A stretch of DNA of 64,000 bases, taken from assembly GCA_023430685.1 (NCBI GenBank), contig JAEYZH010000024.1, positions 1,372-65,371 on the forward strand, read 5' to 3'. Every line of letters begins with the position of its first letter. Positions within the stretch are counted from its first letter, which is position 1. Made by a program: the position numbers and the translations under genes. This document shows positions 7,919-56,321 of this stretch, one piece after another. This DNA comes from Pseudomonadota bacterium. Lineage in GTDB: Bacteria; Pseudomonadota; Gammaproteobacteria; Xanthomonadales; Rhodanobacteraceae. Below the pieces are notes generated by a model, which saw only the letters and a program-made list of their open reading frames with translations, ran no database searches and was not told where the DNA came from.

Positions 7919-8032
7919 ATTTCCCCTGCGAATCATGCGCTTAGGTCGCGAATTCGCCCCTCGCAACAGTGGCGAAAACGTGCTATCGCAGAGTAACAGA
8001 ATCAAATGCTTGCGCGCCGCAACCGGAGAGCT

Positions 8033-8293: not shown

Positions 8294-8384
8294 GCGCGAA
8301 GGATATGCACGCCGACATCAGGAACTGAGACGGTCGGGACGCGGGACAGGATCCGTGGTTACAATCCATAGACAGGAGGGAGCA

Positions 8385-30711: not shown

Positions 30712-31461
30712 TCAGCCGCCCGTGCGGTTCTGGGGAGCAGCCGCCGGCGTCGGCGTCGCCAGCTGCGCGGCTGCGGCCATGAACTCCGTGGTCATCGACA
30801 CGTTCAGCGAGTTGCCGAACGCCTCGAGGTGCGCCATCGCGCGCTGCATATTGCCGGCGTAGCTCGCATCCTTCGCGTAGCAGCGCATCAGCACGAAGTC
30901 GAGCAGCGCATTCACGTACTGGTCGCTGAGCGTCAGCACGTCGGTGCCGGTGGTCGGCGAGCCATCGCCATTCGTCAGCACGGTCACCGGCAGGCCCGAG
31001 TAGACCACCTCGATGTAGGTGTTCGAAGGCGTCGGGATCGACGGGTAGACGTAGAACACCTTCGGCGCGATGTTGTCGAAGATGTAGTGCTGCACGATCG
31101 CCGAGGCGTTCGCCGAGTGCCAGTCCGGCAGTTCGTTGTCCAGCGCGACGCGCGAGCACTCGCGGATCGCGCGGCCAGGCGTGAGGCCATTCGCCCCCAT
31201 GTTGCGGACCGCGCGCAGGAAACGAATGCCCTTCGGCGTGGAGACGCCAGCCGGATCCGTACCATCCGCCATCGGGATCGACTGCTTCGATCCCGCGACC
31301 AGCTTGACCGAAGCGGTGACCGCATTCGAATCGGGGCGCAGCAGAATGATCTGCCGCTGCCCGTCATTGATGTAGTTCACCAGCTCCTGCAGGGACCAAC
31401 GGACATTGGTCGTGTCCTGCAGCGCGATCGATGCCCGCTGGATGATCTCAGTCGCCCGCAT
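30712..31461 (-). CDS. Head completion / adaptor candidate (249 aa)
   Basis: GAGGG lies 8 nt upstream of the ATG at 31461. Positioned downstream of the capsid and decoration genes. Confidence 0.5.
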   Translation of the reverse strand: MRATEIIQRASIALQDTTNVRWSLQELVNYINDGQRQIILLRPDSNAVTASVKLVAGSKQSIPMADGTDPAGVSTPKGIRFLRAVRNMGANGLTPGRAIRECSRVALDNELPDWHSANASAIVQHYIFDNIAPKVFYVYPSIPTPSNTYIEVVYSGLPVTVLTNGDGSPTTGTDVLTLSDQYVNALLDFVLMRCYAKDASYAGNMQRAMAHLEAFGNSLNVSMTTEFMAAAAQLATPTPAAAPQNRTGG

Positions 31462-31834
31462 TGCCGCCGCCCTCGGCGCCGACGGTGGCCAGCACTTCGG
31501 CCAGCTTCGCCTGCAGCGTGGTCAGGCCCGGGTTGCCCGGCAGCTTCACGCCACGCTCGGCGAGCAAGCGCTTGAGCTCGTCCTTGTCGGTGATCTCGAT
31601 CGGGTTGATCGTCGATGCGCCGCCGGCGTCGCCAGCACCGCCCGCATTGCCGCCGCCCTCGGCAGCACTCGCTTCAGCCTGCGCGCGCGACGGCTTGGCC
31701 TGCCGCGTGAAGTCCGTCGCCCCGAGTTCGACGGCCTCGGCATGGCTGATCTCGACCATGTCGGATCGGCGCGCGAGCTGCTCGGTCCAGGGCCACGCGG
31801 TGTTGCCGTCCCGCTTCTTCAACCACTTCATCAT
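31448..31834 (-). CDS. Hypothetical protein with HeH/SAP-like motif (128 aa)
   Basis: GAGGA lies upstream of the ATGATG. DKDELKRLLAERGVKLPGNPGLTTLQAKLAEV is a helix-extended-helix-like motif. AEGGGNAG occurs twice. Confidence 0.5.
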   Translation of the reverse strand: MMKWLKKRDGNTAWPWTEQLARRSDMVEISHAEAVELGATDFTRQAKPSRAQAEASAAEGGGNAGGAGDAGGASTINPIEITDKDELKRLLAERGVKLPGNPGLTTLQAKLAEVLATVGAEGGGNAGD

Positions 31835-31889
31835 CGAATCCTCGATTGGCGTGAGCCAAGGCGCGCCGAAGCGCGCCGTGGCCGAATCG

Positions 31890-32315
31890 TCACAGGCCGA
31901 ACATCAGCGCCTTGACTTCGATGACCGCGTCCGACAGCGCTTGGACGGGCGTGAGGTCGATGGTGTCCGCCGCGGCGTAGAACTTGCCGAGCGAGTAACC
32001 GGTCGGCGTGTTCGGCGTGCCCTCGGTCAGAGCCGGGGCCATTGCGCCGTGCGCGATCGTCTTCGCGTCGATGCCGTCTGCGAATCCGTCCGGGTCGACG
32101 CCGTCGCCGATGTCGAACGTGCGCGTGCTCGAGCCGGTGTCGGCCTTGATGACGCGATACGACACCTTCGCGACGAAGGTGCCGGCCGGGACGTTGAAGA
32201 TCTCGTGCGCGGCCGCCGCGAGCGGCGTCTTGGCGCAGTCGATCAGCGCCGTGACGACGACGCCGGCCTGCGCACCGTAGGGAAGAGCGGCGGTGCCGCC
32301 CGTGGTGAGGTTCAT
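31890..32315 (-). CDS. Capsid decoration / cement protein candidate (141 aa)
   Basis: Sits immediately downstream of the major capsid gene. Beta-rich, with AGGA upstream of the ATG. The call is based on context. Confidence 0.5.
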   Translation of the reverse strand: MNLTTGGTAALPYGAQAGVVVTALIDCAKTPLAAAAHEIFNVPAGTFVAKVSYRVIKADTGSSTRTFDIGDGVDPDGFADGIDAKTIAHGAMAPALTEGTPNTPTGYSLGKFYAAADTIDLTPVQALSDAVIEVKALMFGL

Positions 32316-32378
32316 GGTCCGAGTCCTTTCGTATGGCTGGGCAGGTTGCTGGGCGGCCGAAGCCGCCCAGCCGGTCGG

Positions 32379-33323
32379 TCAGAGCGTTCCCTTGGAGACG
32401 CAGTAGCTCACGAGCGCCTGCGGCTTCAGCACCTTCCAGTCCGCGACCGCCAGGCCGCGCGCCGCCGAGCCGAACGTCTGCTCGAGCACCGGGATGACCT
32501 GGTTCTGGGTGAGCTGGGCGGCGAAGCTGATCGCCGAGCGGTGCGTCGCGATGCCGTTCCAGCACTTCGTGGTGGACTGCATCTCGGTCGGGATCAGGTT
32601 GGAGTTGAAGACCTCCAGCCGGTCGATCACGCCGACGCGACCCGAACGCAGCGCGGACTTGCCGTCGCCGGTCAGCGACGCATCCTTGATGTCGCTGTTC
32701 TTCAGGCGCGCGGTCAGCCACGCGGGGACCACGCACTTGCGGTCCTCTTCCGGCACGTTCTGCTCGTCCATCACCTGCGCGATGTTGAGCAGGAACGCGA
32801 TCGGAGTGACCTGGCCGACGCCGTTGCCGACGACGACGTTCGTGGAACCGGACGCGCCGAGGTTGATGTCGCCACTGATCGCGCCGGCGGCGATACCACG
32901 GTTCGCCGGATCGGCGTCGACGTAGACGTCGCCGAGGAAGTCGCGATCCCAGTCGATCTTCAGCTGCTGGGCGGCATCGCGGGACCAGTCTTCCTGGAAG
33001 TCCAGGTCCGACTGGAACTTGTCGATGTCGTCGATGTGCACGTTCCAGTACTTCGCGCGCTCGATCGGGAACTCGACCACGTTGGGCTGCGGATTCTGGA
33101 CTTCCAGAATCTGGCCCTTCGTGTAGTTCTTGATGCGCACGTCCGGCGTCGTGCGGATGATGACCTTGTCGCCCTGCGACTTGATCTCGCCCTCGTAGTC
33201 GGTGTTGCAGATCTGGGCCATCACGCACGCGGCGTAGAACTTGACCAGGATCTTGCCCGACCAGACCTCGGGGATCAGGATGCCGGACTGCTGGGGAAAG
33301 CCGGCGGCGGCTCCGATAGACAT
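32379..33323 (-). CDS. Major capsid protein (HK97-fold type)
   Basis: 314 aa, placed after the scaffold gene and before the decoration candidate. Sequence typical of P22/BPP-1-like coat proteins (FPQQSGILIPEVWSGKILVKFY...). AAAGGA RBS. Confidence 0.8.
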   Translation of the reverse strand: MSIGAAAGFPQQSGILIPEVWSGKILVKFYAACVMAQICNTDYEGEIKSQGDKVIIRTTPDVRIKNYTKGQILEVQNPQPNVVEFPIERAKYWNVHIDDIDKFQSDLDFQEDWSRDAAQQLKIDWDRDFLGDVYVDADPANRGIAAGAISGDINLGASGSTNVVVGNGVGQVTPIAFLLNIAQVMDEQNVPEEDRKCVVPAWLTARLKNSDIKDASLTGDGKSALRSGRVGVIDRLEVFNSNLIPTEMQSTTKCWNGIATHRSAISFAAQLTQNQVIPVLEQTFGSAARGLAVADWKVLKPQALVSYCVSKGTL

Positions 33324-33374
33324 GGTGAGAATCCTTTCTCTGGGTCGGCCATCCTTGGCCGGTATGCGCTCGCG

Positions 33375-34379
33375 CTATCGAACGCGTCCTTCCTTCTGAG
33401 CCGCGGTGATCTCCGCTTCCAGCACCTTGAAATCGTCCTCGGAAATCTTCCCGATGGCCCGGCGCTTGTAGACCTCGCCGACTTCGGCCGTGGTCCAGAG
33501 ATGCTTCTCGCGATTCGGTTGCGTGCCGCCGCCCGGCGTCGGAACCTGCTGGCGTGCGAGCTTGTCGTCGACCGGCTGCGGCGCCGGCGGCTGATCGGCG
33601 GGCTTGATGCCAGCCTGCTCCTTGTAGGCGTTGAAGAACTCCGCGACGGCCGCGACGTCGCCATCCCGGAAGGCTTCCGCGATCAGTTCCTGCCGCGGTC
33701 GACGTGCGAAGCGATCGCGCTCGGCAAGGTACGCATGCCAGCGCTCGTCCGTATCGATCGACTGCCAGTCGGGAACCACTCGCGTCAGATCTGCCATGAA
33801 GGCCTGTCGCGCTGCCCTTGCTCGATCCGCCGCGACGTCCTCGGTCGCCTTGACGGCGGCCGTGGCCTGTTCGCGCACGGGCTCGATGTCCTTGCGTACG
33901 CCTGCGGCTGCGCTGTCTGCCCTGTTCGCGACGAACGCCTCGATCTCGTCGGCCACCTGGTCGCCCAGCGCCTCCCGGACTGCAGCCGGGAGTTTCGTCG
34001 CGGGCTCCGGTGCCGGAGTCGGTGTCGGAGGCGGTTGATCGGGGCTGGGAGTGCGCGCCTTGGAGAGCTCCGCCTGAAGCGCCGCGAGCCGTTCCTGTGC
34101 GTCCTTCAACTCGCGATTGAGCCTCGGGACGTCGGCGTTGTACATGCCCTGCAGCGTGAGGTACTTCGCCTTCCAGTCCGTGCGGTCCTGTCCGTCCTTC
34201 GGCGGATCCTGCTGCGTAGGCGGATCGTTCGGCGCCGGTGGATCACTCGGGTTTGGCGGTTGCGGTGGGTCCTGCGGCGGGTCGCCTGCCGGCGGGTCCT
34301 GCGTTCGGGATTTCATCGCTTCCTGAATCGCTCGCTCCGAGCGATCCGCGGCATCCTGCACCTGCTTGGGCAGCTTCAT
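33375..34379 (-). CDS. Scaffolding protein (334 aa)
   Basis: Lies between portal and capsid. Has a Pro-rich low-complexity region (DPPAGDPPQDPPQPPNPSDPPAPNDPP) followed by long coiled-coil helices. Start set at MKLPKQ (ATG 34379). Confidence 0.7.
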   Translation of the reverse strand: MKLPKQVQDAADRSERAIQEAMKSRTQDPPAGDPPQDPPQPPNPSDPPAPNDPPTQQDPPKDGQDRTDWKAKYLTLQGMYNADVPRLNRELKDAQERLAALQAELSKARTPSPDQPPPTPTPAPEPATKLPAAVREALGDQVADEIEAFVANRADSAAAGVRKDIEPVREQATAAVKATEDVAADRARAARQAFMADLTRVVPDWQSIDTDERWHAYLAERDRFARRPRQELIAEAFRDGDVAAVAEFFNAYKEQAGIKPADQPPAPQPVDDKLARQQVPTPGGGTQPNREKHLWTTAEVGEVYKRRAIGKISEDDFKVLEAEITAAQKEGRVR

Positions 34380-34424
34380 CGTCGATCCTTGAGGTCCGCG
34401 TTGCGCGGTGTCCATCGGGTGAGG

Positions 34425-34664
34425 CTATCGCCTCGCATCCTGGCGCTTTGCGAGCGCTGCGCGCGCGCCTTGCACCAGTTCCATGAGTTCGCCCGCCAGG
34501 CTCGCGCGCCCTTGCGCACGGCCGGTGAGCACCAGATCGGTCACCTGCTCCAGAGCATCCCTTGCATCTTCGCGGCGCTTCGCGATCTCGTCGAGGAAGA
34601 CTCGGAAATCGGGATCGCGCTCGAGGCGTGCGCAGGCTTGCTCCAGTGCGTGTTGACCTTCCAT
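34425..34664 (-). CDS. Small helical hypothetical protein (79 aa)
   Basis: ORF between portal and scaffold with good codon bias but no clear RBS. Confidence 0.4.
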   Translation of the reverse strand: MEGQHALEQACARLERDPDFRVFLDEIAKRREDARDALEQVTDLVLTGRAQGRASLAGELMELVQGARAALAKRQDARR

Positions 34665-34706
34665 TGCGGCGCATCGTGCAGTCGCGCCACGCGCGCGCCT
34701 AGTGAA

Positions 34707-36758
34707 TTACGCGGCTTCGCGGAACAGCGCGTGATCGACGCCGCCGGCGGGATTGCCAGCAGCGTCGACGGCGCCCGGTTGTCCGGGCTGCTGGCCAGGC
34801 GTGCCGAGCATCATGGTTGCCTGCCGCTGCTGCGCCAGCATTTCGTCCTTCGACGGCAGAATGTCGTCGGGGTTGAGGTCGAGCGCCTTGATCGTTTCGC
34901 GCAGGAGCGCCGCGCGTCCCATAGGTCCGAGGATCGGCGCATCGATCGCGTTCGCCGTAGCCTGCAGGAACTGGGTGCGGCGCAGTTGCTGCTGCTCCTT
35001 CGCGACCAGCGAAGCAGCGCCGCGCGCCTGCAGCTGCGCATCGCCCTTCACGTCGGGGTTCGGGTCGAACAGCATGATGTGCGTGTGCACGCGGTTGAGG
35101 CTGCCTTCGATCACGCGGTCGATCGCGGCGATGACCCGCTTGATCTGGCGCGAGCTCGCGGTCATCAACATCGACAGGCCGGACGCGGTGCCAGCCGCTC
35201 CCGTCGTCGGATTGACGCCCTGCTCGTAGCTCGGGATGCCGCTGTAGTTGTCGGCCAGCTGCGCGAAGTAGCCGTAGACCTTCATCAGCACGTCGACCAC
35301 CGACTGCGGATTGTGGAACCGCACCGCCGGCGACGGCGTCGTTTTGCTCGACTTCGTCTGGAAGATGCGCCACGGGTAGAGCTGAGTCACGTCCTCGCCG
35401 GACGCGAGACGATCGACCTCGACCTCGATCATCGGACCGGATGCGATGCCCATGTTGTTGCACAGTGCGCGCGCGCAGGCGTTGCAGATGTTCTGCAGGT
35501 CGCGGATGAGGCGCGGCAGGCCACGGCCCCAGAACTGGCCTTTGATCGAATCGAAGCTCGCCTTCATGTACGGCCGGCGGCGCAGCGGGTCTTCGTTGAG
35601 CACGCACCGCACGATGAACCGGCCGACCTTCAGGCAGGTAACCTCGTAGTCGGCATCGGCATCGGGAACCTGCGCCGCCTCCATGCCCCACTCGAGCAGC
35701 CATTCGCCGCGCACGGAGCCGTGGAACTCGAGCGCGTCGATCGTGCCGTCCGGCGACATCTGCCAGTTGCGCGACCGCTCCAGCTCTCGGCGCTGCTGGT
35801 CGCCGGCGATCGCCAGGTCGTACCCACTGCGCTGATATTCCTCGAGGGCCGCACGGATTTTCTGCTCGTCGTAGCCGGGGACACCGATCATCGAGAAGAG
35901 CGCCGACCGGCGCAGCGGAATGCGTTCGAACAGGTAGCCGTCGTCAATGTCGCGGCTGTCGGGCGCCGGGTAGATGTCGAGCACCGATGGCGAGTAGAAC
36001 ATCGGCACGAGCTCGTCCTCGGCCTGCGGCACCGACTTCCCGGTCTTCGGATCGGGCACCCAGGTCAGGCGGCGATTCTTGCGGATTACAGGCCCTTTGA
36101 GGATGCCGGCCGGCAGCGCGACGAGATCGGGGATCATGTCCTCCATCGCGTCGTACCACGCGCCCTCGACCAGCACGTCGTCGATGGCATCTTCCATGCG
36201 CTGCGCGCGGATCTTCGCTTCGTCGCGCATGCGCTGCTGGATCTGGTCGTAGAGCGACCGCGCGCGCTCGTACACCGCTTCTGGCGTCACGAACAGGCCC
36301 GCCTGAATCGCCTGCTCGAGTTCGATCATGGTGCGCTGGTAGATGCCGGCCTTGAGTTCCTGCGGCAGGTCATCGGGCACCGGCGTCGGCTTCACCGTGA
36401 AGGGACGCTCGCCGGCGGGCAGCAGGATGTCGCGAATCCAGCCCTCCGCGGCGCGGCACTTCACGTTGGTCAGCAGCATGTAGACCTCGCTGCCGCCCTG
36501 CTTCCTGATCTCCGCGAGCTTCGTCGGCGAGTAAATGCCCTCGCGCTGCCGCAGGTCCTCGAGCATGTCCGGCTCGATCTGCGACTCCTTCGCGGAGCGC
36601 GCAGCCTCCCAGCAGTTCGCGATGTAGCTGTCGAGACGGCTGAGCAGGTTCTGGTAGGGATCGTTACCGGGCGACGGCGCAGACGTCGGAGCGCCAGGCG
36701 CCGCGTCGCGCTTCGCCGACTGGACCTGCTTCAGGATCTCTTCGAGTAGCCCAGGCAT
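34707..36758 (-). CDS. Portal protein (683 aa)
   Basis: Size and position (first gene of the head module downstream of terL) support the call. AGGAAG lies 8 nt upstream of the ATG at 36758. Confidence 0.8.
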   Translation of the reverse strand: MPGLLEEILKQVQSAKRDAAPGAPTSAPSPGNDPYQNLLSRLDSYIANCWEAARSAKESQIEPDMLEDLRQREGIYSPTKLAEIRKQGGSEVYMLLTNVKCRAAEGWIRDILLPAGERPFTVKPTPVPDDLPQELKAGIYQRTMIELEQAIQAGLFVTPEAVYERARSLYDQIQQRMRDEAKIRAQRMEDAIDDVLVEGAWYDAMEDMIPDLVALPAGILKGPVIRKNRRLTWVPDPKTGKSVPQAEDELVPMFYSPSVLDIYPAPDSRDIDDGYLFERIPLRRSALFSMIGVPGYDEQKIRAALEEYQRSGYDLAIAGDQQRRELERSRNWQMSPDGTIDALEFHGSVRGEWLLEWGMEAAQVPDADADYEVTCLKVGRFIVRCVLNEDPLRRRPYMKASFDSIKGQFWGRGLPRLIRDLQNICNACARALCNNMGIASGPMIEVEVDRLASGEDVTQLYPWRIFQTKSSKTTPSPAVRFHNPQSVVDVLMKVYGYFAQLADNYSGIPSYEQGVNPTTGAAGTASGLSMLMTASSRQIKRVIAAIDRVIEGSLNRVHTHIMLFDPNPDVKGDAQLQARGAASLVAKEQQQLRRTQFLQATANAIDAPILGPMGRAALLRETIKALDLNPDDILPSKDEMLAQQRQATMMLGTPGQQPGQPGAVDAAGNPAGGVDHALFREAA

Positions 36759-37226
36759 TGCGTGCGCTTCCTGCTCATGTTCACTGAACTTGCTGCCGTG
36801 TCTACCCTCTCACCAGTGGGCAGAACAGTGAAGTTAATTCCGGCTCGACAGTCCACATGCCGTAAGACTTTTCCTATTTTCCTGTAAGACATTTCCTACA
36901 AGCCACCCGGCATGCCTTCAATCTCCAGCTGGAGCAATCGAGCGACACCGCGCTGCACAATGACACCGCGTGTCGCATTTGATACAGGACAATCGGCGGA
37001 GGGCGCGCTGTTCGCGCCGGGGACTCTCAGTTCTCATTGACGTCGACGCACTTTGCGTGGCCTACCACGGAGTGCCGCACGTGCCCGCCCATCCTCAACA
37101 GTCTTGAACTCGGCTGGTCGATCTTCGGCGGGCGCGATTCGACGTACTCGGACACAACTCCTTCGCCGTTCTGGCGCGCCACTGCGTGCGGCGCTCCGCT
37201 TACGCCATCTGAGAGGGGAACTCGAT

Positions 37227-38222
37227 ATGTGCAGTATTCGGATCCGGCTTTTTGTTCTATCCATGCTCATCTACGGGTGGGCAACAACCTGTCTTGGGCA
37301 AGGCGCAGAGCCTCCTCCGCAAGCATCACAAGAAGTGTGCGCATCGGAGGAGGCGGCACTGCTGGATGTTCAAAATAGATACAAACCAATCATGGATTCT
37401 TTGGAGAAACGGGGGGCTGCCATCAGCGAAGAAGGGGACGAAACCAGCCTACTGCGGGTCGATCTCGTGTGGCGGGAAGAGAGATGGGTTTTCGACCTTC
37501 CAACGGTAAGCATGAAGACGAAAGACATGAGCCTCGACTTACCCCAGTTTTCAATGCGAAGGAAAGATATGTCCTTTGACATCGTCGAAACCTTCATGGG
37601 CACCACTGATTGCGGCAAGTATCCCGAGTTCACATGCAGCGGCTTCAAGTGTAGGGTGAAGTGGTCGGTTATACGTTGCGACCTCCCGCAGACCCGCAAG
37701 AAGCGCGTACGCATCTCGCTCGACGTCCCAGAAACCCGGTGGGATACGACCCATTTCTCGATGGATATCCCGGAGATCTCCATGCACAAACAAGAATGGA
37801 CGTTCAAGCTTCCGGACAAGGTGACTGTTGAGACCCTGGATGAACAAGTCGCGGAGATCAAGCTCAAAGGAGACGCGCTGAAGAGCGAGTCCGAAGCGGT
37901 TGTGCAAGCAATGCAGAAGGAGGTGACAGAGAGGACCAGTAGCATGCTGACCTGCCGCCGTCAGGACCTTCTCTCAAAACGATCCGGCGTCGCGTCTCAG
38001 TTCGACGCCGCGATTGCACAGTTCGATACATCGATCCAGATGATCACCGCTCAAGGGGGCAATCCGCGCGCAGTCATCAATGATCAAAAGGTCAGCGTCG
38101 ACATGCTCGCGGCAAAAGACGAATTGGTCAGGAACAAGGAGCGATCGATGGCTGAGTTTGATGCCGCGTTGAAGTCATTGGATGACGCCTCCACGAAGTC
38201 GCTGCAGGCCGTAGCCGGATAG
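37227..38222 (+). CDS. Secreted repeat-containing protein (331 aa), low-GC moron on the opposite strand
   Basis: ATG at 37227 after GAGAGGGGAA. Signal peptide MCSIRIRLFVLSMLIYGWATTCLG. About 13-aa repeats FDLPTVSMKTKDMS / LDLPQFSMRRKDMS / MDIPEISMHKQEWT, and a coiled-coil C-terminal half. GC is visibly lower than the flanks. Confidence 0.75.
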   Translation: MCSIRIRLFVLSMLIYGWATTCLGQGAEPPPQASQEVCASEEAALLDVQNRYKPIMDSLEKRGAAISEEGDETSLLRVDLVWREERWVFDLPTVSMKTKDMSLDLPQFSMRRKDMSFDIVETFMGTTDCGKYPEFTCSGFKCRVKWSVIRCDLPQTRKKRVRISLDVPETRWDTTHFSMDIPEISMHKQEWTFKLPDKVTVETLDEQVAEIKLKGDALKSESEAVVQAMQKEVTERTSSMLTCRRQDLLSKRSGVASQFDAAIAQFDTSIQMITAQGGNPRAVINDQKVSVDMLAAKDELVRNKERSMAEFDAALKSLDDASTKSLQAVAG

Positions 38223-38257
38223 TTCTTTCCAACGCGTTACCCTCCATAGTGCTTTCG

Positions 38258-38282
38258 GGGCCCAAGTCCAAAGCTTGGGCCC
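38258..38282. terminator. Stem-loop between convergent genes (terminator-like, no U-tract)
   Basis: GGGCCCAAG-tccaaag-CTTGGGCCC, a 9-bp perfect stem, lies between the stop of 37227..38222 (+) and the stop of terL (-). Confidence 0.4.
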
Positions 38283-38301
38283 TCTCGTGCCGAGTGATCG
38301 C

Positions 38302-39750
38302 CTAGGTCCACCCTGCCGCGCTGCGCTGCTTCACGGTGCGCGCGACGGCCGTCGGCGCCACCACGTTGCCGGCCCACGCCGCCTGGCAGGTGTGCTGGTG
38401 CGCATCGTGCGGATGCGAGAACCGGTTCTTCTCTGGCGCTTCCTTGTAGCGCTCGTCGCCCGACACGTTGAGCTTCGCGTAGCGATAGCCACCGAGGAAT
38501 CCGCGGCGCAGGTAGGTGCACTTCGGCGACAGCAGGTATCCCGGCTGGCCGTCGATCGTCGACTTCAGGAAGCGGATCACCGCGTCCTGGCGCGCAGCTG
38601 GATCGTTGGTCGGCGCCTCCTGCGTCGGGATGCCTTCCTCAGCCTGGATGTCCATGCACGAGGTCTCTTCGCCCTGCCCCTTCGCCGCGCCGGCCGGATC
38701 GCCCCACGACAGTCCGATGGGCATGCCGACGTAGTTCGCAGCGAGGTGCGGCTTCACGATCTCGCGCGTGAAGGTGCGGATCCCCATGCCCTCGCCGGCG
38801 GCGTCGACGACAAGCTCGTCGATCACGCGGAGCTGACCCTTCGGCGTCATTTGCGCGATCACGCAGGCGGGCGTGCGGCCGTAGTCCCAGCCCAGCAGCA
38901 GCGGCAAGCCGCGCCACGGCTCGAGGATGTCCGGCGCGCAGTGGATCGAATCGACGTACTCGGGGAACACGACGCGGCCGTCGAGCACGGTGCCGTACTG
39001 GCCAAGGATGTAGACCTTGATCCACTCGTCGGTTTTGCCCGGCAGCTGACGGAGCCAGTACTCGTAGCCCAGCTCGTGGTTCTGCACGTTCTCCGCGGCA
39101 GGGTTTGGCACGTAATCGGCCGGGCCGCGCTTGATGAGCGCCGGCGGCTGCGCCCAGAACTCGAAACCCTTCGGCCGCTCTTCCTCGGCGAGTCGATACC
39201 ACCAGTGGATGTCATCCGGCGGATTGGTGTCCATGATGACGCCGGACCAGGACGCGCCGCCGTCGCGCTTCGACGGATAGCGTCCGACGCGGCCCATCGC
39301 GGCGTCGATCACCGCCTTCGGGATTTCCTTCGCCTCGTTGATCCAGACGCCGGTCAGCTCCAGGGACAGCAGCTTCTTCACGTCCTTCGGGCGGTCCAGC
39401 GCGATGAACAGTATCTCGAGGTCGATGTCGCGCAGGCGAAGGCGACCGCGGATCGGCGCGTCGTACACGATCGGGCAGATGTCGTCCGGGAACCAGTCCT
39501 GCCAGGTCTTGATCGTGGTCGACTTCAGCTCCGCGTAGGTGTTGCGCACGATCGCCCAGCGACTGCGCCGGATGCCGCCCTTTCCCGGGCGCTGCTCGGC
39601 AGCGCGCCGGAACACTTCGACGCAGCAGCCGACCGACTTGCCCGAGCCGATCGGGCCGCGAATGCCGCGCACGAAGGCATTCGACGCGTGAAACCGCGCC
39701 AGCGTCGGCGATGCCGTGTAGTCGATGTGGATGGGGGTGAGCGCGGTCAC
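38302..39750 (-). CDS. terL: Terminase large subunit
   Basis: Walker A GPIGSGKS, then ...VWINEAKE (Walker B-like) and a C-terminal nuclease region. The GTG start overlaps the terS stop (GTGA). Confidence 0.9.
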   Translation of the reverse strand: MTALTPIHIDYTASPTLARFHASNAFVRGIRGPIGSGKSVGCCVEVFRRAAEQRPGKGGIRRSRWAIVRNTYAELKSTTIKTWQDWFPDDICPIVYDAPIRGRLRLRDIDLEILFIALDRPKDVKKLLSLELTGVWINEAKEIPKAVIDAAMGRVGRYPSKRDGGASWSGVIMDTNPPDDIHWWYRLAEEERPKGFEFWAQPPALIKRGPADYVPNPAAENVQNHELGYEYWLRQLPGKTDEWIKVYILGQYGTVLDGRVVFPEYVDSIHCAPDILEPWRGLPLLLGWDYGRTPACVIAQMTPKGQLRVIDELVVDAAGEGMGIRTFTREIVKPHLAANYVGMPIGLSWGDPAGAAKGQGEETSCMDIQAEEGIPTQEAPTNDPAARQDAVIRFLKSTIDGQPGYLLSPKCTYLRRGFLGGYRYAKLNVSGDERYKEAPEKNRFSHPHDAHQHTCQAAWAGNVVAPTAVARTVKQRSAAGWT

Positions 39751-40691: not shown

Positions 40692-41055
40692 CGAGGCAGC
40701 GAGCCAGATCCGGCTCGGCCTTTCGGCGCCACAGTTCGAGGTTCCGCTTCGCATCGCTCAGCTCCTTCTGGATCACCGCGCTGCGAGCCGCGGCGTTCCG
40801 GTTCACGTCCTCGCGCAACGCGAGTTCGCGCGCGTGGTCCCTCGCGGCCGTCTCGGCGTCCGCCTTCGCCCGCTCGGTCGCGGCGCGCGCTTCGTTGAGG
40901 TCCAGCACCAGATCGGTGCGGTCCTTCTCCATGCCGGCGACCTTCGTCTGCAGGGCATCGCGGTCCCGGAAGGCGCCGGCGATCGTGTCAACGCCGTACC
41001 AGGCGCCGAGGATCGCGACGATGGCGGCGATCGCGTAGGCGGCGAGCTTCGTCAT
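40600..41055 (-). CDS. Inner-membrane spanin (Rz-like)
   Basis: N-terminal TM MTKLAAYAIAAIVAILGAWYG followed by a charged coiled coil. The ATGA start overlaps the endolysin stop. Confidence 0.8.
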   Translation of the reverse strand: MTKLAAYAIAAIVAILGAWYGVDTIAGAFRDRDALQTKVAGMEKDRTDLVLDLNEARAATERAKADAETAARDHARELALREDVNRNAAARSAVIQKELSDAKRNLELWRRKAEPDLARCLDVVVPDFVVGLPGVATATGAGAGVHPDRSD

Positions 41056-41615
41056 GTCGTGGTCACTCCTGACTGCACGTTCGAGAAATCGGCGCGCTCG
41101 TACCGGCGGCGCGCCGCGTTGAATGCTTCGATCAGCTGGCCCATGCGGTGCTCGGGCTGGCCATACCCTGCACCCGGGAAGCTGGCCCAGATGCGCTTCG
41201 CTGCGACGATGGCGGCCTGCACGTCGCCGGCGTGCACCAATGGGAGCGAACCGCACTCCCGCAGTAGCTGGACGCAGGCGATGTCTTGGCTCTCCGGGCT
41301 GAAGTCGGGGAGCGAGAGCGCCGCGGCGAGAGCAGACCAGGTGCCACGCAGGAACTGGTAGCGCCCCGCGGCCGAAGATCGAACGACCTTGTCGGTGCCG
41401 TTCGCCGGATCCGCGAACTTCACCGGCACGACTTCGTTCGGGTGCGCGTCGTAGCCGGCAATCAGGCGGAGCCGTCCCGGGCGCGATCCGACCTGCACGT
41501 TGTAGCCGTCGTCGGACTCCGCGAGCATGCGCGGGCCAATCTCGCTGAACGCGATGGTGTCGAGCATGGCGCAGACGTTGGCGCCGCCTGCGCGCGCTAC
41601 CGAGATCCTGCACAT
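41052..41615 (-). CDS. Endolysin, lambda R-type lytic transglycosylase
   Basis: Aligns by eye with lambda R: LDTIAFSEIG (catalytic Glu), AAGRYQFLRGTW, FSPESQD, IWASFPGAGYGQPEH. Start set at ATG 41615 (GGAG 6 nt upstream). The track start at 41642 is GTG. Confidence 0.88.
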   Translation of the reverse strand: MCRISVARAGGANVCAMLDTIAFSEIGPRMLAESDDGYNVQVGSRPGRLRLIAGYDAHPNEVVPVKFADPANGTDKVVRSSAAGRYQFLRGTWSALAAALSLPDFSPESQDIACVQLLRECGSLPLVHAGDVQAAIVAAKRIWASFPGAGYGQPEHRMGQLIEAFNAARRRYERADFSNVQSGVTTT

Positions 41616-41671
41616 CGTCGGCTCCGAAACGGACCGCGCCACTCCGGCGCGATCCGCGGTCCAGGCCCGGC

Positions 41672-42151
41672 TTACTGCAGCTCGGGTTCGCCGAACACGA
41701 TCTCGGCGTTCGTCGCTTCGGCGAGCACGACCTCGAGCGCGCCGGTCGCGACCACTTCGCGCACGCCTTCGCCCATGTCGGCATCGCCGGCGGCGGTGAT
41801 CAGGGTCGCGCCCGCGCCGACCGCCAGCACGAAGGCGCTGGTGGCATCGATGCGCTCGATGACCGCGACGTCGGGATTGCTCGACTCGAAGCGGACCTCG
41901 CCGTCGACCGGGGCCGGGTTGCCAGCCTGCGTGGTCGGTGCGAACTCGATGCGGACCTTCTGCTCGTTCGTGATGCGTGCCATGACGTGCTCTCCTTCCA
42001 TGAAGGTTTCAGGTGTGATGTACATCCGCAGCCGCGCGCGGCGTGGCTGTGGCTTGTTGCCGAGTGCGACGCACATGAACCACAGCGCCGCGACCGCAGC
42101 TGCGAAGCTGCCGACGAGATAGCCAGCGATGAACTCGCCGGGCGAGGTCAT
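41672..42151 (-). CDS. Membrane-anchored protein with an Ig-like (Big_2-like) domain, inside the lysis cassette
   Basis: N-terminal TM FIAGYLVGSFAAAVAALWFMCVAL. The C-terminal ~100 aa is beta-rich: VRIEFAPTTQAGNPAPVDGEVRFESSNPDVAVIE...LITAAGD. The ATGA start at 42151 overlaps the upstream stop. An alternative internal start at 41983 has AAGGAGAG. Confidence 0.55.
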   Translation of the reverse strand: MTSPGEFIAGYLVGSFAAAVAALWFMCVALGNKPQPRRARLRMYITPETFMEGEHVMARITNEQKVRIEFAPTTQAGNPAPVDGEVRFESSNPDVAVIERIDATSAFVLAVGAGATLITAAGDADMGEGVREVVATGALEVVLAEATNAEIVFGEPELQ

Positions 42152-42462
42152 TCCGGCGTGTGTCCGAGTCGGCGAATCTGGTCCTCGAGGGCGGCGACGC
42201 GCCGCGTCAGCGTCGCGACCTTGTCCTCGGCGACCATGCGCTTCTGCCGCTCGCTCTCGAAGGCCGCCCATGCCTCTTCCTGCGCCTGCTCGAGCTTGCT
42301 CACGCGAGCCGTCAGGAGCTCGATCACGTCCGTGCGCGCCGATGCCTCGGCGGCGTCGGTTCGAATGCCGAACACCATCGGGACCAGTTTCGAGATCGCG
42401 AAGATCGCAAGCGCAGGGAGCAGCCCCCACTTGCCGATTGCTTCCAGGAGTGCGGCATCCAT
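42148..42462 (-). CDS. Single-TM plus coiled-coil protein (holin/antiholin or lysis regulator candidate)
   Basis: TM WGLLPALAIFAISKLVPMVFGI, then a charged helix. TGATG overlap with the upstream gene. Confidence 0.5.
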   Translation of the reverse strand: MDAALLEAIGKWGLLPALAIFAISKLVPMVFGIRTDAAEASARTDVIELLTARVSKLEQAQEEAWAAFESERQKRMVAEDKVATLTRRVAALEDQIRRLGHTPE

Positions 42463-42884
42463 CAGGCGGTATCCCTGTCGCTCTGGGTCATGTCGGTGCG
42501 CAGGGAAACCCAGATCGATGCCGCTAGCAGCGCGACGCCGCCAGCCATGCTCGGAGACAGGTAACCGACTGAAGCGACGCTGGCAGCGACGTACATCGTC
42601 CACATGCCGCAGGTCGCCGCGTTCACCCCGCGGGTCACGCCGATGCGTGGATTCCGCGCGATGATCCGCCACGTCAGCGCGATGCCGTCCGCAACCGAGA
42701 GTGCGACCCACACCCAGCGTGGCGCAGCGCGTAGCAGGGCGACGTACAGCGGTTCGGCGAGCACTCTGTCCGGCGCGAGCGCGAACGCCGCAGCCCAGAT
42801 CAGCGCCGCCATCGCGAGCATGACCCTGACCGGCAGGGTCGAGCTGTACCTGAGCGCCGTGCGTACCGGTGTCGGAGCCTTCAC
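42462..42884 (-). CDS. Holin candidate (140 aa, 4 predicted TM helices)
   Basis: First gene of the lysis cassette downstream of Q. GTG start after GAGG. A second in-frame Met (M22) allows dual starts. Four hydrophobic segments. Confidence 0.55.
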   Translation of the reverse strand: MKAPTPVRTALRYSSTLPVRVMLAMAALIWAAAFALAPDRVLAEPLYVALLRAAPRWVWVALSVADGIALTWRIIARNPRIGVTRGVNAATCGMWTMYVAASVASVGYLSPSMAGGVALLAASIWVSLRTDMTQSDRDTA

Positions 42885-43038
42885 ATGGTTGCCTCGAAGA
42901 GCGGGCGGCCGTCCTTGGCCGATGGCGCGTCCTTGCGCTCACTTCGGCAGCTTATGGAGCGCGACTTCGGGCAATAAGTGAATTAGCGATTGAATTGTTG
43001 GATGATGCTGAACAACTGCATGGCCCGAGGTGTTCCGG

Positions 43039-43620
43039 ATGCCTCTTCAGGAAGATGAGCTGCGTACGTGTCTGGCGGCGGCCAACGAATCCTTACTCGC
43101 CATCCAGATTGCTTACGGTCGGGAGAATGCGCCCGAAGCGCGGATTCGATTTCCACGTGGGTGGATTCGAACCGCTGCTACTCTGCGGCAGACGCTCCCG
43201 AACATGGGGACACCACTTGAAAGGCGGAACGCGTCATACGCGCTTCTAGGTCTCGAGCCAATGCGATGGCTCGCCGTCAGAACGGACATTAGCAATGCAG
43301 CCCTCAGCATGATCGTGAAGCAAATGATCGCGATTCTTGGCTCACTGCTCGAATGGTTCGTACGAGTCCCAACTCGCGACAGAAGGGGCCGGCATAGCTT
43401 CAACAAGCGTTCTCAGATGCTGGTGGCGCTTGGAATATTCGACGAAGAACAGAAGGCTGAAATCGACTGGGTATGGTCCAAACGCAGTGTTGGCTTACAC
43501 CTGCACTTACCCATCGCCTTGGAACATGAAGGATATACTCGGGCCGACTGGAATCGGGCTGCCGCTGCGTATGTGAGCGCGCGGAAGTCACTCGTAGACC
43601 TCCACGGTAGTGCGCCTTAA
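43039..43620 (+). CDS. Low-GC moron: HEPN-like (Rx4H) protein, 193 aa
   Basis: ATG at 43039 is 6 nt after GAGGTG. The C-terminal LVALGIFDEEQKAEIDWVWSKRSVGLHLH resembles the helix plus Rx4-6H signature of HEPN/DUF4145-type proteins. Opposite strand to all neighbours, and its stop overlaps the Q stop (TTAA). Confidence 0.6.
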   Translation: MPLQEDELRTCLAAANESLLAIQIAYGRENAPEARIRFPRGWIRTAATLRQTLPNMGTPLERRNASYALLGLEPMRWLAVRTDISNAALSMIVKQMIAILGSLLEWFVRVPTRDRRGRHSFNKRSQMLVALGIFDEEQKAEIDWVWSKRSVGLHLHLPIALEHEGYTRADWNRAAAAYVSARKSLVDLHGSAP

Positions 43621-44078
43621 GGGGCCGCTTGGCGTCGCAGATTCGCCAGATAGGCCAATGTCGCTTGATATGCATTGTGCAGTCGGTCGCGGAAGTCATT
43701 CCGGTGGCATTCGCACTCACTCGCGCGCCAGCTCATGCTGTTGCGTCGCAACCCTGATCCCGCACACATCGGACAGATCGGTCCGACGTTCGCGACGAGG
43801 TCAATCCGACCAGTGCCGCGGCACACGGTGCACGCAGGCGCCGAGCTCATCTCGAGCAGGATTGCGCTGGCAATCCGGAAGTGCGTGCCGTTCCTGGACT
43901 TGCATCCGATCGCTCGCAGCATGCTGAGCGCCACGGCCGCGGCGTAGACATACGCGCGCCGCTCCGCAGTGTTCGCCGCGTCGTCACGCAATGGGCCATA
44001 GGCGTCCCACAGGTACGGCGTCGACAGACCTGAGCGATGCAGTTCCGCGAGATCAAGTCCAGGATCGACGGCGACCAT
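43617..44078 (-). CDS. Q: Late-gene antiterminator, lambda Q family
   Basis: CTVCRGTGRIDLVANVGPICPMCAGSGL matches the lambda Q CRDCHGTGRAVD...CGRCKGVGYSR zinc motif. Positioned directly upstream of the lysis cassette. Confidence 0.8.
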   Translation of the reverse strand: MVAVDPGLDLAELHRSGLSTPYLWDAYGPLRDDAANTAERRAYVYAAAVALSMLRAIGCKSRNGTHFRIASAILLEMSSAPACTVCRGTGRIDLVANVGPICPMCAGSGLRRNSMSWRASECECHRNDFRDRLHNAYQATLAYLANLRRQAAP

Positions 44079-44089
44079 CGAACGATGCC

Positions 44090-44602
44090 TCAGGCGGCCG
44101 CCGGCGCGGTGCCAGCGCTCTCCGTGCGGAAGCCCCAGTGCGCCAGCAGCAGCGCTTCGGCACGACCGTCATCGCGTTTGCGCGAGAGCGGTGCATCGGG
44201 GAACCGGTCAATCGCGAGCGCGCGGCTCGCCTCCTTGTCGCATCCGATCAGCGAGTACGAGCGCTTCCAAACCTGCGGGGTGACCTGCAGGACGGGAATT
44301 CGCAACGCGGCCAGCACGCCGAGCACGCAACCATGCGACTGGCCGAAGCGGAACGTGCTCGCCAACCCCTGCCGCGGCATGGATCCGACGGCCTCGACGA
44401 CGCCATGCACGTACACGCCGGAGTGCCCCGCGATCTGCTCGCGCAGATAGCTGGCGAGATACGCCGCGTTCACCGCGCGCTTTCCGGCCTTGCCGCGGCC
44501 GCACGTTGGCATGTCGATCACGTCCGCGAACACGCCATCGGCCAGCACGCCGATGGCCCCCGTGAACCCGGGATCGATTCCGATCGTCAACCTGTGCGAC
44601 AT
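44090..44602 (-). CDS. RuvC-like Holliday junction resolvase
   Basis: MSHRLTIGIDPGFTGAIGVL (first catalytic Asp), ...VEAVGSMPRQG..., and C-terminal DDGRAEALLLAHW. Start at ATG 44602 after GGAGGA. Confidence 0.8.
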   Translation of the reverse strand: MSHRLTIGIDPGFTGAIGVLADGVFADVIDMPTCGRGKAGKRAVNAAYLASYLREQIAGHSGVYVHGVVEAVGSMPRQGLASTFRFGQSHGCVLGVLAALRIPVLQVTPQVWKRSYSLIGCDKEASRALAIDRFPDAPLSRKRDDGRAEALLLAHWGFRTESAGTAPAAA

Positions 44603-49738: not shown

Positions 49739-50218
49739 ATGGCGGACTGCAGATATCCGCGCACGGAGGAGGAGGTTTGCCTCGATATCGAATACTCGAG
49801 GCGCCTCCATGAGCTGCACTGCAAACTCTTTCGCCGGCTGCGGTGGCTTGCGGTGCTGGTTTCTCTCGCTGCGGGAGCGAGCGCGGTAACCGATCTCGTC
49901 CGCATGGTCCCCGGGGGCGTCCTTCTGGCTGCGGGGATCGTCACGTTCATGACGATCGTTGACGCCATTAGCCACTGGGAGGAACGTGCGGCGCAACACA
50001 ATCTTTGGCGGCGACAGTTCGCGCGGTTGGCAGCGCAGGCCGAGGGCATGTCTTACGAAGATCTGCAACGCGCGTACAAGACGTTGGATGCCGAGGTGGA
50101 CGACGTTCTCAGAATCCTCGAAACCATCGCTTACAACGATGTGGAGCGAGCCAACGAGCTGACGCACATGGTGCGCCCGGAGTCGATCACCCAACGTGCC
50201 TTGCGACTGCTGCTGTAG
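49739..50218 (+). CDS. Opposite-strand moron: 2-TM protein with flanking helices (SLATT-like topology), 159 aa
   Basis: ATG at 49739. Two adjacent hydrophobic helices, WLAVLVSLAAGASAVTDLV and GGVLLAAGIVTFMTIVDAI, lie between amphipathic helices. Convergent with the C5-methyltransferase gene, stops 5 nt apart. Confidence 0.6.
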   Translation: MADCRYPRTEEEVCLDIEYSRRLHELHCKLFRRLRWLAVLVSLAAGASAVTDLVRMVPGGVLLAAGIVTFMTIVDAISHWEERAAQHNLWRRQFARLAAQAEGMSYEDLQRAYKTLDAEVDDVLRILETIAYNDVERANELTHMVRPESITQRALRLLL

Positions 50219-54619: not shown

Positions 54620-55150
54620 TCACGCTGCGGCTCTATCGCGCTCGATCAGGATGGCATCGGCTGCCGCTTCAAGGCCGTAGTTCACGCCGCGCAGGCCTGC
54701 GACGACGGTCGCCGCCCAGTCGAAATATTCCCGCTTGCGCTGGGCCGGCCAGTCCGGCGGTGCGTGCACCAAGTCGCGCAGATTCGCGATCTTGTCGGCG
54801 AGCTTTACCAGCTTCGCCTCACGTGAAAGATGCGGCGCATGCTCGACCTGCAGATCCTTCCGACGCTGCTTCGGCAACGTCTTGTCGTCGGTGACCTCGA
54901 GCACGATCGACGCAACGGCATCGTCGAACTCGGAGCACAGCTCTTCGAAGGTGGTGTCCGTGTCCTCGATCGTGTCGTGGAGCAGCGCCGCCGCAAGCAC
55001 AATCGGATCGGAAACGCCGCCCTCTTCCACCAGGATGCGGGCGACCGTTATCGGATGGTTGATGTAGGGAGAGGCTGCAGCGTCCTTGCGACGCTGGTCA
55101 CGGTGCTTGTGGGCGGCGAAGGCCGCTGCACGAAGGACGATGCTGTCCAT
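54620..55150 (-). CDS. Small alarmone hydrolase, Mesh1/SpoT-type HD domain (176 aa)
   Basis: HKHRDQRRKD..PYINHP, AALLHDTIEDTDTT, EVTDDKTLPKQRRKDLQVEHAPHLSREAKLVKLADKIANLRD. This is co-linear with my recollection of metazoan MESH1/HDDC3 and bacterial SAH. Start set at MDSIVLRAAAF (ATG 55150). Confidence 0.85.
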   Translation of the reverse strand: MDSIVLRAAAFAAHKHRDQRRKDAAASPYINHPITVARILVEEGGVSDPIVLAAALLHDTIEDTDTTFEELCSEFDDAVASIVLEVTDDKTLPKQRRKDLQVEHAPHLSREAKLVKLADKIANLRDLVHAPPDWPAQRKREYFDWAATVVAGLRGVNYGLEAAADAILIERDRAAA

Positions 55151-55308
55151 GCGGCGAATCGTAGCAGAACTGGTGCACCGCAGTCGCGGCTTATGGGCTT
55201 CCCTTGCGGGCGCGGGTGCGCTGACTTGCGGTGCGTGATCAGTGTCGCAGCGACGATCCCGTAACGGCAGCGGCATTCGCCGCGCTGCGGCGTAGGAAAT
55301 CTCCGACA

Positions 55309-55340
55309 AGAAAAAGCCCCGCTTTGGCGGGGCTCGATTT
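55309..55340 (-). terminator. Rho-independent terminator after the 2-TM/DUF4760-like gene
   Basis: AGCCCCGC-caaa-GCGGGGCT followed by TTTTT on the minus strand. Partly T-rich on the plus side as well. Confidence 0.75.
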
Positions 55341-55427
55341 CTTCAGTCTAGTTTAGCGGCCGTCAAATCCGACCAGTCTGTTCGTTGGGGGTGTGTGTCA
55401 TTTGAGAGCTCCCTTTGGGCGACTCAC

Positions 55428-56171
55428 TTAGCGGCGGAGTCGGTTGCCGAACTTATCCTTTTGGACCTGTCCTTTCGGCTTCTTCGCTTCAAGCTCTTGC
55501 GCAATCTCTTTGTCGCGCCTTTCTTGCCATGTGGATGCTAAATCTACGAGTTCAATGTACGCCTTGGCATTCGCGATCTGGAAATGCGAGATAAGCGGTC
55601 CCAGCACCTTCACAGCCCGGAGCACTCTCCCTGCTTGTAGGCAGAAAGCGTATTCCTCATCAACAAAGCCTGAATGAACGGCTGCGGCTAGCGACTCTAG
55701 ACAATCCAGGTACGCGCGTGCCGCGTCGCTCCATTTTGTGTTGTCAACAATCTGGTTGACCAGGTCGGCCGTAATGGCCTCTCCACCTGCATTGAAGTGT
55801 GCATCGATCTTGGACTCGTGCGCGACTTCTGCAAAGCGATCATTGGTTGCCCTGCTAGCGTCGGCGCTGAAATATCGATAGAACGTTTCGACGCGATTGA
55901 ACTCCAGATCGGCAATCTGCTTTGCTTTCGCCTCTGCATGCTGTCGGCGCGCTAGCAATACCGAAAGTAGGCCAGACGAAAGGATGAGCAACGACGCTGC
56001 CTTATACGCCGCATCGAAATAATCGCGTCCGTTTTGGGTCCCAAGACGCAGCCCTATCAGGAATAGAACACAAGCAAGACCCACAGTTCCACAGAATGGC
56101 AGCCACACGCGCGGGAGCGCGGCTGGCTGCACTTGATGCATTCGACTAGGGCCTGCATCCGCTTCACTCAT
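55428..56171 (-). CDS. Low-GC moron: 2-TM N-terminus plus DUF4760-like C-terminal domain (247 aa)
   Basis: GGAGG lies 9 nt upstream of the ATG at 56171. TMs WLPFCGTVGLACVLFLIGL and AASLLILSSGLLSVLLA. The C-terminal YLDCLESLAAAVHSGFVDEEYAF...YIELVDLASTWQER resembles DUF4760 as I recall it. Confidence 0.65.
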   Translation of the reverse strand: MSEADAGPSRMHQVQPAALPRVWLPFCGTVGLACVLFLIGLRLGTQNGRDYFDAAYKAASLLILSSGLLSVLLARRQHAEAKAKQIADLEFNRVETFYRYFSADASRATNDRFAEVAHESKIDAHFNAGGEAITADLVNQIVDNTKWSDAARAYLDCLESLAAAVHSGFVDEEYAFCLQAGRVLRAVKVLGPLISHFQIANAKAYIELVDLASTWQERRDKEIAQELEAKKPKGQVQKDKFGNRLRR

Positions 56172-56321
56172 TCAGCCACGCCTCCCCTGTGATTAAGTGT
56201 TTCACGGTCCACGGACGCTGTCCAACCGCGTGCCGGAGGCAGCGCGCACGCACGTATAGCCATCCCGCTAGCAATTCTCGTGCCGCATCGACAGCCCGCC
56301 TCAACGCGGGCTCAGCGCTGC

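Follow-up and report, generated by a model that had tools for sequence, protein, structure and literature searches.

HepS (STM14_3211) of the Salmonella prophage Gifsy-1 is a solo HEPN protein of the abortive infection (Abi) type, which has no partner and is latent by default; it forms a tetramer, responds to a tail-tip trigger and cleaves the anticodon of tRNA (PMC13043305). RAZR/PD-T7-4 combines a zinc finger with a DUF4145 ribonuclease (RNase) that is activated by phage ring proteins (PMC13017515), and DUF4145 proteins also occur in operons with restriction-modification (R-M) genes (PMC3710099). A further single HEPN-like protein with anti-phage activity, Esos, is encoded by a cassette of the chromosomal integron of Vibrio cholerae (bioRxiv 10.1101/2024.07.02.601686). 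Here we analyze the gene of an HEPN-like protein which lies between a Q-like gene and the holin gene of a prophage, within a stretch of 64,000 nucleotides hereafter called the window (Rhodanobacteraceae, GenBank assembly GCA_023430685.1, contig JAEYZH010000024.1), and we argue that it may be a latent Abi RNase carried by a foreign single-gene insertion.

Precedents exist both for the slot and for the nuclease. In Stx phages, stx occupies the interval between Q and the lysis genes, on the same strand, and latent HEPN nucleases guarded by a restriction system are classically found in the operon of type I R-M systems. Gifsy-1 itself (NC_010392, region 31312-35026) carries gogA at 31917-32603 on the plus strand, between Q (34349-35026) and the holin gene (31312-31641), which are both on the minus strand. 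Solo HEPN defence genes on prophages (HepS) and on integron cassettes (Esos) are thus already known, and the same is true of opposite-strand accessory genes, or morons, located between Q and the genes for lysis. New here are an uncharacterised protein family that curated libraries miss, its variant Rx3H motif and N-terminal extension, the range of mobile vehicles in which it is found, and the reconstruction of one of its insertions at the level of the base pair.

The HEPN-like protein and its family

The open reading frame (ORF) begins with the ATG at 43039, which is preceded by a GAGG Shine-Dalgarno sequence 8 nt upstream and is backed both by the homologues, all of which begin with MPL, and by public gene calls. 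An in-frame GTG at 43030 was considered as an alternative start and is unlikely, since it falls within the Shine-Dalgarno spacer. The ORF ends intact with the TAA at 43618-43620 of the plus strand, and the stop of the Q-like gene is the TAA given by the reverse complement of 43617-43619; these coordinates, and the overlap of the two stops in TTAA, are as described in an earlier, sequence-only reading of the window, in which the quoted C-terminal peptide corresponds to residues 128-156.

A word-indexed search retrieved 13 relatives with 43-53% identity, all of them unnamed, and a profile search among 1.84 billion cluster representatives extended the family to 338 clusters of relatives (grouped at 50% identity) with E ≤ 1e-3, 60 of which reached E ≤ 1e-30. 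Nearly all of these proteins have about 190 residues and align end to end. Given these 338 clusters and the confidence of the structure model presented below, the ORF is a real gene and not a chance reading frame.

Conservation was evaluated in an alignment of 111 diverse full-length relatives that are 20-43% identical to the window protein. Only three columns are invariant, namely P39, R149 and H154, the last two of which lie in the family motif W[LV]W..R[N/C/S/G]xxH[LIV]; a polar residue after the arginine is typical of HEPN proteins (PMC3710099). The location of this pair, where helix 3 ends and the loop leading to helix 4 starts, also fits the published description of the superfamily (PMC3710099). 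In the window protein a one-residue insertion turns the motif into RSVGLH, that is Rx4H, and the resemblance to the Rx4-6H signature that the sequence-only reading had noted near the C-terminus is borne out by residues that do not vary in any of the relatives aligned. The Ex3[KR] motif characteristic of HEPN helix 2 is found as well, its E105 being nearly invariant in the same alignment.

The structure predicted by AlphaFold2 from the alignment of the 111 relatives (pLDDT 96.2, pTM 0.90) contains four long helices, 59-81, 86-112, 136-153 and 168-189, which correspond to the all-alpha four-helix core of HEPN domains. When this model was compared with the PDB by Foldseek, a check that had been proposed together with the original claim, the top 17 matches were all HEPN proteins: the best was YutE (1ylm, E 6.8e-3), and others included 1wwp, 1ufb, the HEPN toxin of Aphanizomenon (7ae2, 7ae6, 7ae8 and 7ae9) and HepT of Shewanella (6m6u and 7bxo), with TM-scores normalised to target length of up to 0.69 among the HepT chains listed. 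HEPN proteins recur at lower ranks, for instance AF0298 (2hsb), sacsin (3o10), HI0074 (1jog) and TM0613 (1o3u). A shallower structure model produced the same ranking, and a fold search of BFVD gave nothing informative.

Sequence profiles lead to the same neighbours. The family profile compared with PDB sequences has its best matches in HepT toxins (5yep_B and 6m6u_B, E 0.25), the alignment placing the family stretch 'lwdiRnk-iH' on 'mvgLRNiaVH' of HepT, which contains the catalytic RNxxxH. Among Pfam families DUF4145 is matched by 15 of the 111 relatives and a HepT-like family, weakly, by four; one relative, P0148, exceeds the gathering score of DUF4145 (24.8 vs 23.1 bits, over residues 110-171) while the other 14 remain below it. 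The likeness to DUF4145 proposed earlier is sustained in the sense that this is the nearest curated family, and from the sequence comparisons the window protein is best called DUF4145-related, not a member of DUF4145. Since the conservation, the structure, the comparison of the profile with the PDB and the Pfam matches all agree, we consider HEPN fold and homology to be very probable.

Residues 1-58 (43039-43212) form an extension specific to this family, with a helix at 5-26 followed by a loop, IRFPRGxIRTA, that holds the invariant P39. With the consensus [A]R[IV]RFPRG[FW]IRTA, conservation in this region is higher than anywhere else except the active site, and the extension may act as a sensor, a lid or a dimer contact.

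The insertion into the Q-like gene

The gene stands out in composition. Its GC content is 0.564 (0.593 at third codon positions, or GC3), compared with 0.666 for the window overall and with GC3 values of 0.83-0.85 for the genes of the holin, resolvase and endolysin, so that the low GC noted earlier for this plus-strand gene is evident. The same holds for the family, the gene being low in GC with respect to its surroundings in all three genomes of isolates or metagenome-assembled genomes that carry relatives.

Its boundaries can be deduced from the only homologue of the neighbouring Q-like protein found among 5.8 billion proteins, P0165, which has 184 aa and 59% identity. P0165 is encoded at 8001-8555 of locus L016, a phage contig of 31 kb, in which the Q-like gene is separated from the following gene, the start of the lysis cassette, by 66 nt with nothing in between; L016 carries no HEPN-like gene. 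Protein homology to P0165 extends to residue 151 of the 153 of the window Q-like protein, P0165 having 21 more residues, and DNA homology to L016 ends at about 43625, restarts at about 42990 and then continues with around 70% identity to the start of the holin gene. The interruption is clean at both ends. It very probably marks, on the evidence of this sequence comparison, a foreign single-gene insertion of 635 bp, whose ORF has 48 nt before its ATG and 5 nt after its stop, and which replaced about 27 nt of ancestral sequence and removed the C-terminal tail of the Q-like protein. The 106 nt that remain upstream of the holin gene are native phage sequence, in part left over from the Q-like gene's 3' end and in part the true intergenic leader of 66 nt.

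The gene has the features of a moron, with foreign composition, a position between a regulator and the holin and absence from a related phage, and the opposite-strand foreign moron of the sequence-only reading is upheld by both its composition and its absence from L016. The overlap of the stop codons has to be seen differently. Past the break of homology with L016, the Q-like gene ends with two codons and a stop (GCC CCT TAA, 43625-43617) that come from the insert, read on its reverse strand. That both stops share TTAA is therefore a side effect of the recombination junction and not a designed feature. The locus shows cleanly, at the resolution of the base pair, a moron that arose where recombination joined foreign DNA to the 3' end of a phage regulatory gene.

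As possible ends of the cassette we also considered an imperfect inverted repeat of 22 nt, with arms at 42930-42951 and 43564-43585, and rejected it, because the comparison with L016 places the boundaries at about 42990 and 43625 and because one of its arms falls in the conserved leader.

The identity of the interrupted gene with Q is less firm than its position. Its place after the RuvC-like resolvase gene is in keeping with a Q gene, but the name is otherwise based on a match to phrog_127, 'anti-termination protein Q-like', that has an E-value of 9e-4 and covers the zinc-finger half of the protein. A PDB sequence search with the Q-like protein gave no match, and neither did BLASTN and TBLASTN searches of 50,697 phage records or a scan of IMG/VR; in the same searches of the phage records the sole match was a short one of the endolysin to Burkholderia phage BcepC6B. 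The Q-like protein may not be a classical Q antiterminator, since the spacing of 66 nt in L016 leaves scant room for PR', qut and tR' of the lambda type. Comparison of the window holin with that of L016 showed no relationship, so that the lysis cassettes are mosaic.

Contexts of the relatives and proposed function

The relatives are found in a variety of mobile and defence-related contexts. In Pseudoxanthomonas sp. J31 (NZ_AZNZ01000002.1, 6833-9060) the HEPN-like gene is the first cassette of a chromosomal integron, whose integrase matches TIGR02249 with 481 bits against a cut-off of 265. Its divergent array consists of small ORFs of low GC that are separated by near-identical attC repeats (…AAGCCGACGCCGCTTCGCGGCGCGGCTTAACTCAGGTGTTAG[A/G]C) with the core GTTAGAC or GTTAGGC, and the HEPN-like cassette begins directly after the GTT on the attI side. 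Copies flanked by attC are also present in L023/L024, in L020/L021 and probably in L025. The window copy has no attC, for which there is no space, as homology with the Q-like gene restarts 5 nt past its stop. Elsewhere a relative is cargo of a Tn7-like element, which also encodes TniQ, an rve transposase and an AAA protein, and another adjoins an IS91 transposase.

R-M genes are neighbours of several relatives. One relative directly follows an MmeI-type R-M gene, another is placed after hsdS and before hsdR in a type I system (L040), two more operons have the order hsdM-hsdS-hsdR-DUF6161 before the relative, and in a further locus it comes after genes for SNF2, an N6_N4 methylase and ResIII. 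On a second phage-like contig, L019, the relative is located on the opposite strand between the tape-measure gene and an AAA_25 replication gene. Several other loci present neutral, uninformative contexts. No partner is conserved across the family, and an all-against-all BLASTP comparison of 20 neighbour proteins from eight of the loci that were fetched first gave no mutual match.

Three observations concern individual branches of the family. The operon of L040 (213-8647), also seen in L041 and L042, contains two different HEPN genes: a pair of NTP_transf_2 (MNT) and HEPN (PF05168) genes lies between hsdM and hsdS, and the family member overlaps the end of hsdS and is followed by DUF2283 genes and then hsdR. 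In one subclade (L035, 8001-11862; L036, 8001-11956; L038, 8001-11849) the HEPN-like gene is accompanied by two downstream genes for unknown proteins of about 640 and 433 aa, which are 28-93% identical between the loci and conserved in this subclade only; this trio is found after different R-M systems and is a candidate three-gene defence module. In two soil metagenome loci (L030, 830-1108; L031, 1323-1601) the gene is broken after 92 codons with similarity by tblastn continuing to residue 186, and these copies are probably a frameshifted pseudogene.

The role in defence that the sequence-only reading had suggested for the protein, as an Abi nuclease, fits the R-M, integron and transposon contexts of the relatives, from which we infer it. 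These contexts constitute an association with defence and not its proof. As the family moves between integrons, transposons, R-M operons and prophages, it is a promising candidate for an anti-phage system that is new and consists of a single gene.

The explanation that we favour is the following. The protein is a solo, all-helical HEPN protein and a divergent relative of DUF4145, most likely a metal-independent RNase with R149 and H154 in its active site, which in HEPN RNases is a composite site formed by a dimer; its gene was brought as a single-gene cassette of 635 bp by recombination into the 3' end of the Q-like gene, opposite to phage transcription. It is assumed to be expressed in the lysogen, where the protein would be catalytically latent, a property proposed because no antitoxin gene is present. 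A component of a superinfecting phage would then trigger the protein, which would cleave tRNA or mRNA and abort the infection, thereby protecting the lysogen population and hence the prophage. With moderate confidence, and largely by analogy, we thus regard it as probable that the gene encodes a latent Abi RNase of the kind of HepS, RAZR and PrrC, defending the lysogen.

Several results weigh against this explanation. No relative was retrieved from either of the two phage collections searched, the 50,697 phage records and IMG/VR. The window protein has no match in Pfam, PHROGs, PADLOC or NCBIfam, and none to DUF4145 (PF13643) at E ≤ 1, its link to this family being transitive via the relatives; the 111 relatives have no consistent PADLOC match even at E 0.5, in a library that was not checked for a model of PD-T7-4. 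The Foldseek E-values are modest, none being ≤ 1e-3, and about 107 of the 111 relatives have Rx3H, one residue below the canonical Rx4-6H. Finally, neither a sigma-70-like promoter of the HEPN-like gene, even at relaxed stringency, nor a flanking intrinsic terminator was detected in scans that cover consensus-type signals only. If the proteins are active, the near-universal Rx3H would widen the accepted active-site motif of HEPN proteins.

The least improbable of the alternatives concerns the orientation of the gene. According to this, the protein would be an Abi effector whose convergent overlap with the Q-like gene works as a functional switch, induction silencing the gene by antisense transcription while the transcript of the moron may in turn damp Q. 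The sequence-only reading had placed PR' and qut in the interval between Q and the holin and had concluded that the late transcript must start within the HEPN-like gene or cross it. We found no such signals: the single terminator-like site of the standard scan is inside the HEPN-like ORF, a relaxed promoter scan (at least 8 of 12 matches) of both strands of the window and of L016 gave none, the scan of Rfam returned only a chance miRNA match, and the RNA of the 106-nt leader folds no better than shuffled sequences. In view of a spacing of only 66 nt in L016, and of scans that found no promoter between the Q-like and holin genes of the window or, at relaxed stringency, in L016, co-transcription of the Q-like and first lysis genes is plausible. 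Applied to the window, this would mean a transcript that passes through 635 nt antisense to the HEPN-like gene, with no intrinsic terminator on either strand between the two convergent genes. The relative in L019 is also opposite to its phage-like neighbours.

An activator-dependent late promoter within the retained leader is equally possible, and late transcripts starting from it would not pass through the gene at all; the 'must' of the previous claim was therefore too strong. Further points against the switch are that the overlap is a junction by-product, that opposite orientation is common in morons, as with gogA between Q and holin in Gifsy-1, and that HepS shows self-immunity without transcriptional control. 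The convergent overlap with a Q-like gene was seen in the window only, and in all loci with neighbours read (short contigs left out) other than the window and L019, the relative shares its strand with its nearest neighbour at least. On balance we judge the switch unlikely as an explanation of the gene. Improbable too is the fuller version of self-immunity, in which induction would silence the nuclease by antisense transcription and readthrough into the Q-like gene would help to keep the late genes silent in the lysogen. If true, it would explain by transcription interference why carrying an Abi gene does not stop a prophage from spreading, an explanation different from that by trigger variants found for HepS, and the locus lends itself naturally to testing if a prophage can escape its own Abi gene by antisense transcription.

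A constitutively toxic protein that is checked by a hidden RNA antitoxin or by proteolysis, and whose function is to stabilise the cassette, the integron array or the prophage, would also be compatible with HEPN RNases being common toxins of toxin-antitoxin (TA) systems, with the HepT proteins as nearest structural matches and with the stabilising TA cassettes that integron arrays carry (PMC3710099). It is disfavoured, since the family as a whole shares neither a partner gene nor a non-coding element in its flanks. No MNT gene or other partner is adjacent in the window, and in L040 and L041, where an MNT and HEPN pair does lie upstream, hsdS separates this pair from the relative. The flanking non-coding DNA differs wholly between loci, so that there is no conserved RNA antitoxin; no Rfam family was matched, and the cassettes are too compact, that of the window having only 48 nt upstream of the gene. 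An addiction or stabilisation toxin is accordingly quite doubtful.

Very unlikely is a phage-serving or inert HEPN protein (for instance a factor of RNA processing or of regulation, an anti-defence protein, or a domain that binds a ligand or nucleotide): many HEPN domains are non-catalytic substrate binders (PMC3710099) and the conserved N-terminal extension with P39 and the prevalent Rx3H spacing would suit such a role, but non-catalytic HEPN families lose the R..H pair that is invariant here, the gene is absent from L016, no relative was found in the phage collections searched, and most relatives reside in cellular mobile elements and R-M operons.

The coordinates of the features discussed are collected in table 1. 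The genes of the prophage around 43 kb are all on the minus strand, with the terminase and portal genes farther along in the same prophage.

Table 1. Features of the HEPN-like locus and its surroundings, in window coordinates
Feature	Position	Strand	Basis and remarks
RuvC-like resolvase	44090-44602	-	phrog_1770, E 1.6e-29
Q-like zinc-finger protein, 153 aa	43617-44078	-	phrog_127, E 9e-4; C-terminus shortened by insertion
Inserted low-GC cassette, 635 bp	42991-43625	.	comparison with L016, from which it is absent; GC 0.564
TTAA common to both convergent stops	43617-43620	.	sequence; within right end of insert
HEPN-like (DUF4145-related) solo protein, 193 aa	43039-43620	+	ORF, Shine-Dalgarno sequence, relatives, AlphaFold2 model, Foldseek
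R149-S-V-G-L-H154, Rx4H motif	43483-43500	+	end of helix 136-153 and following loop
E105-W-F-V-R109, Ex3[KR] motif	43351-43365	+	helix 86-112, equivalent to HEPN helix 2
Leader upstream of holin, 106 nt	42885-42990	-	about 70% identical to Q-like gene tail and 66-nt spacer of L016
Holin, 140 aa, first gene of lysis cassette	42462-42884	-	phrog_28727, E 8.6e-14; GTG start
Second small membrane/coiled-coil protein	42148-42462	-	after holin
Endolysin	41052-41642	-	phrog_90, E 1.4e-41

Two more islands of low GC are present in the window. The first (36701-38300, minimum 0.51) includes a plus-strand ORF of 217 aa at 37569-38222, charged, coiled-coil-like and with no Pfam match, which is wedged between the minus-strand genes of the portal (34707-36758) and the large terminase (38302-39750) and looks like another opposite-strand moron. 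The other (55251-56200, minimum 0.52) contains a minus-strand ORF of 247 aa at 55428-56171, with an N-terminal hydrophobic segment and a match to DUF4760 (32.6 bits against a cut-off of 25). Next to it is the gene of a protein with an HD_4 domain (54620-55309). The ORF of 247 aa may represent a further gene of accessory or defence type. In addition, a plus-strand ORF of 159 aa (49739-50218) lies in the minus-strand early region, where it is a public gene call and has a weak hemerythrin-like match (E 0.05).

Comparison with known systems

HepT proteins of the DUF86 type provide the best structural and profile matches of the window protein (5yep, 6m6u, 7bxo, 7ae8 and 1ylm), with which its region from helix 3 to helix 4 and the R..H pair align. 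It differs from them in being about 50 residues longer at the N-terminus, and no MNT antitoxin gene is adjacent to it in the window or to its relatives in the loci that were read.

Similarity to DUF4145 proteins includes the presence of several relatives in R-M operons and the match of P0148, which spans the R..H pair. With respect to RAZR, whose corresponding residues are R146 and H154, the arginine and the histidine are spaced differently: three residues separate them in about 107 of the 111 relatives and four do so in the window protein. The window protein also lacks a zinc finger or any other fused domain. PrrC and RloC, which are considered here by their published description (PMC3710099), resemble the family in that distant relatives are found within or after hsdM-hsdS-hsdR operons; the window protein does not have their N-terminal ABC-ATPase domain and its gene is not beside a restriction system.

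The integron-borne HEPN proteins, represented by the family of 3jrt (PMC3710099) and by Esos, the latter compared by its description, are similar because relatives of the window protein are bona fide cassettes. However, 3jrt is not among the profile matches or the top 50 Foldseek matches, and the window copy is without attC.

As regards the slot, gogA of Gifsy-1 shares with the HEPN-like gene its location between Q and the holin gene, its opposite strand, its status of single accessory gene and its foreign composition. Morons of the gogA type are nevertheless different in two respects, because the insertion in the window cut into the coding sequence of the Q-like gene and because the cargo is a predicted nuclease instead of a virulence effector.

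With HepS no sequence relationship could be shown. Neither the profile matches with E ≤ 10 nor the 50 best Foldseek matches include a HepS-like chain, the pair R100..H105 reported for HepS was present in none of four candidate ORFs translated from the Gifsy-1 record of LT2, and the family of the window protein has the conserved N-terminal extension of 58 residues as a distinguishing element. Both are nonetheless single HEPN proteins of less than 250 aa with an Rx4H motif, encoded by accessory genes of prophages of the lambdoid type and with no gene for a partner or inhibitor; in the window the gene is the sole one of its insert and no partner co-occurs with it. By analogy, the window protein would be expected to follow the same logic as HepS, that is to be latent in the lysogen, to be triggered by an incoming phage and to act by cleaving RNA.

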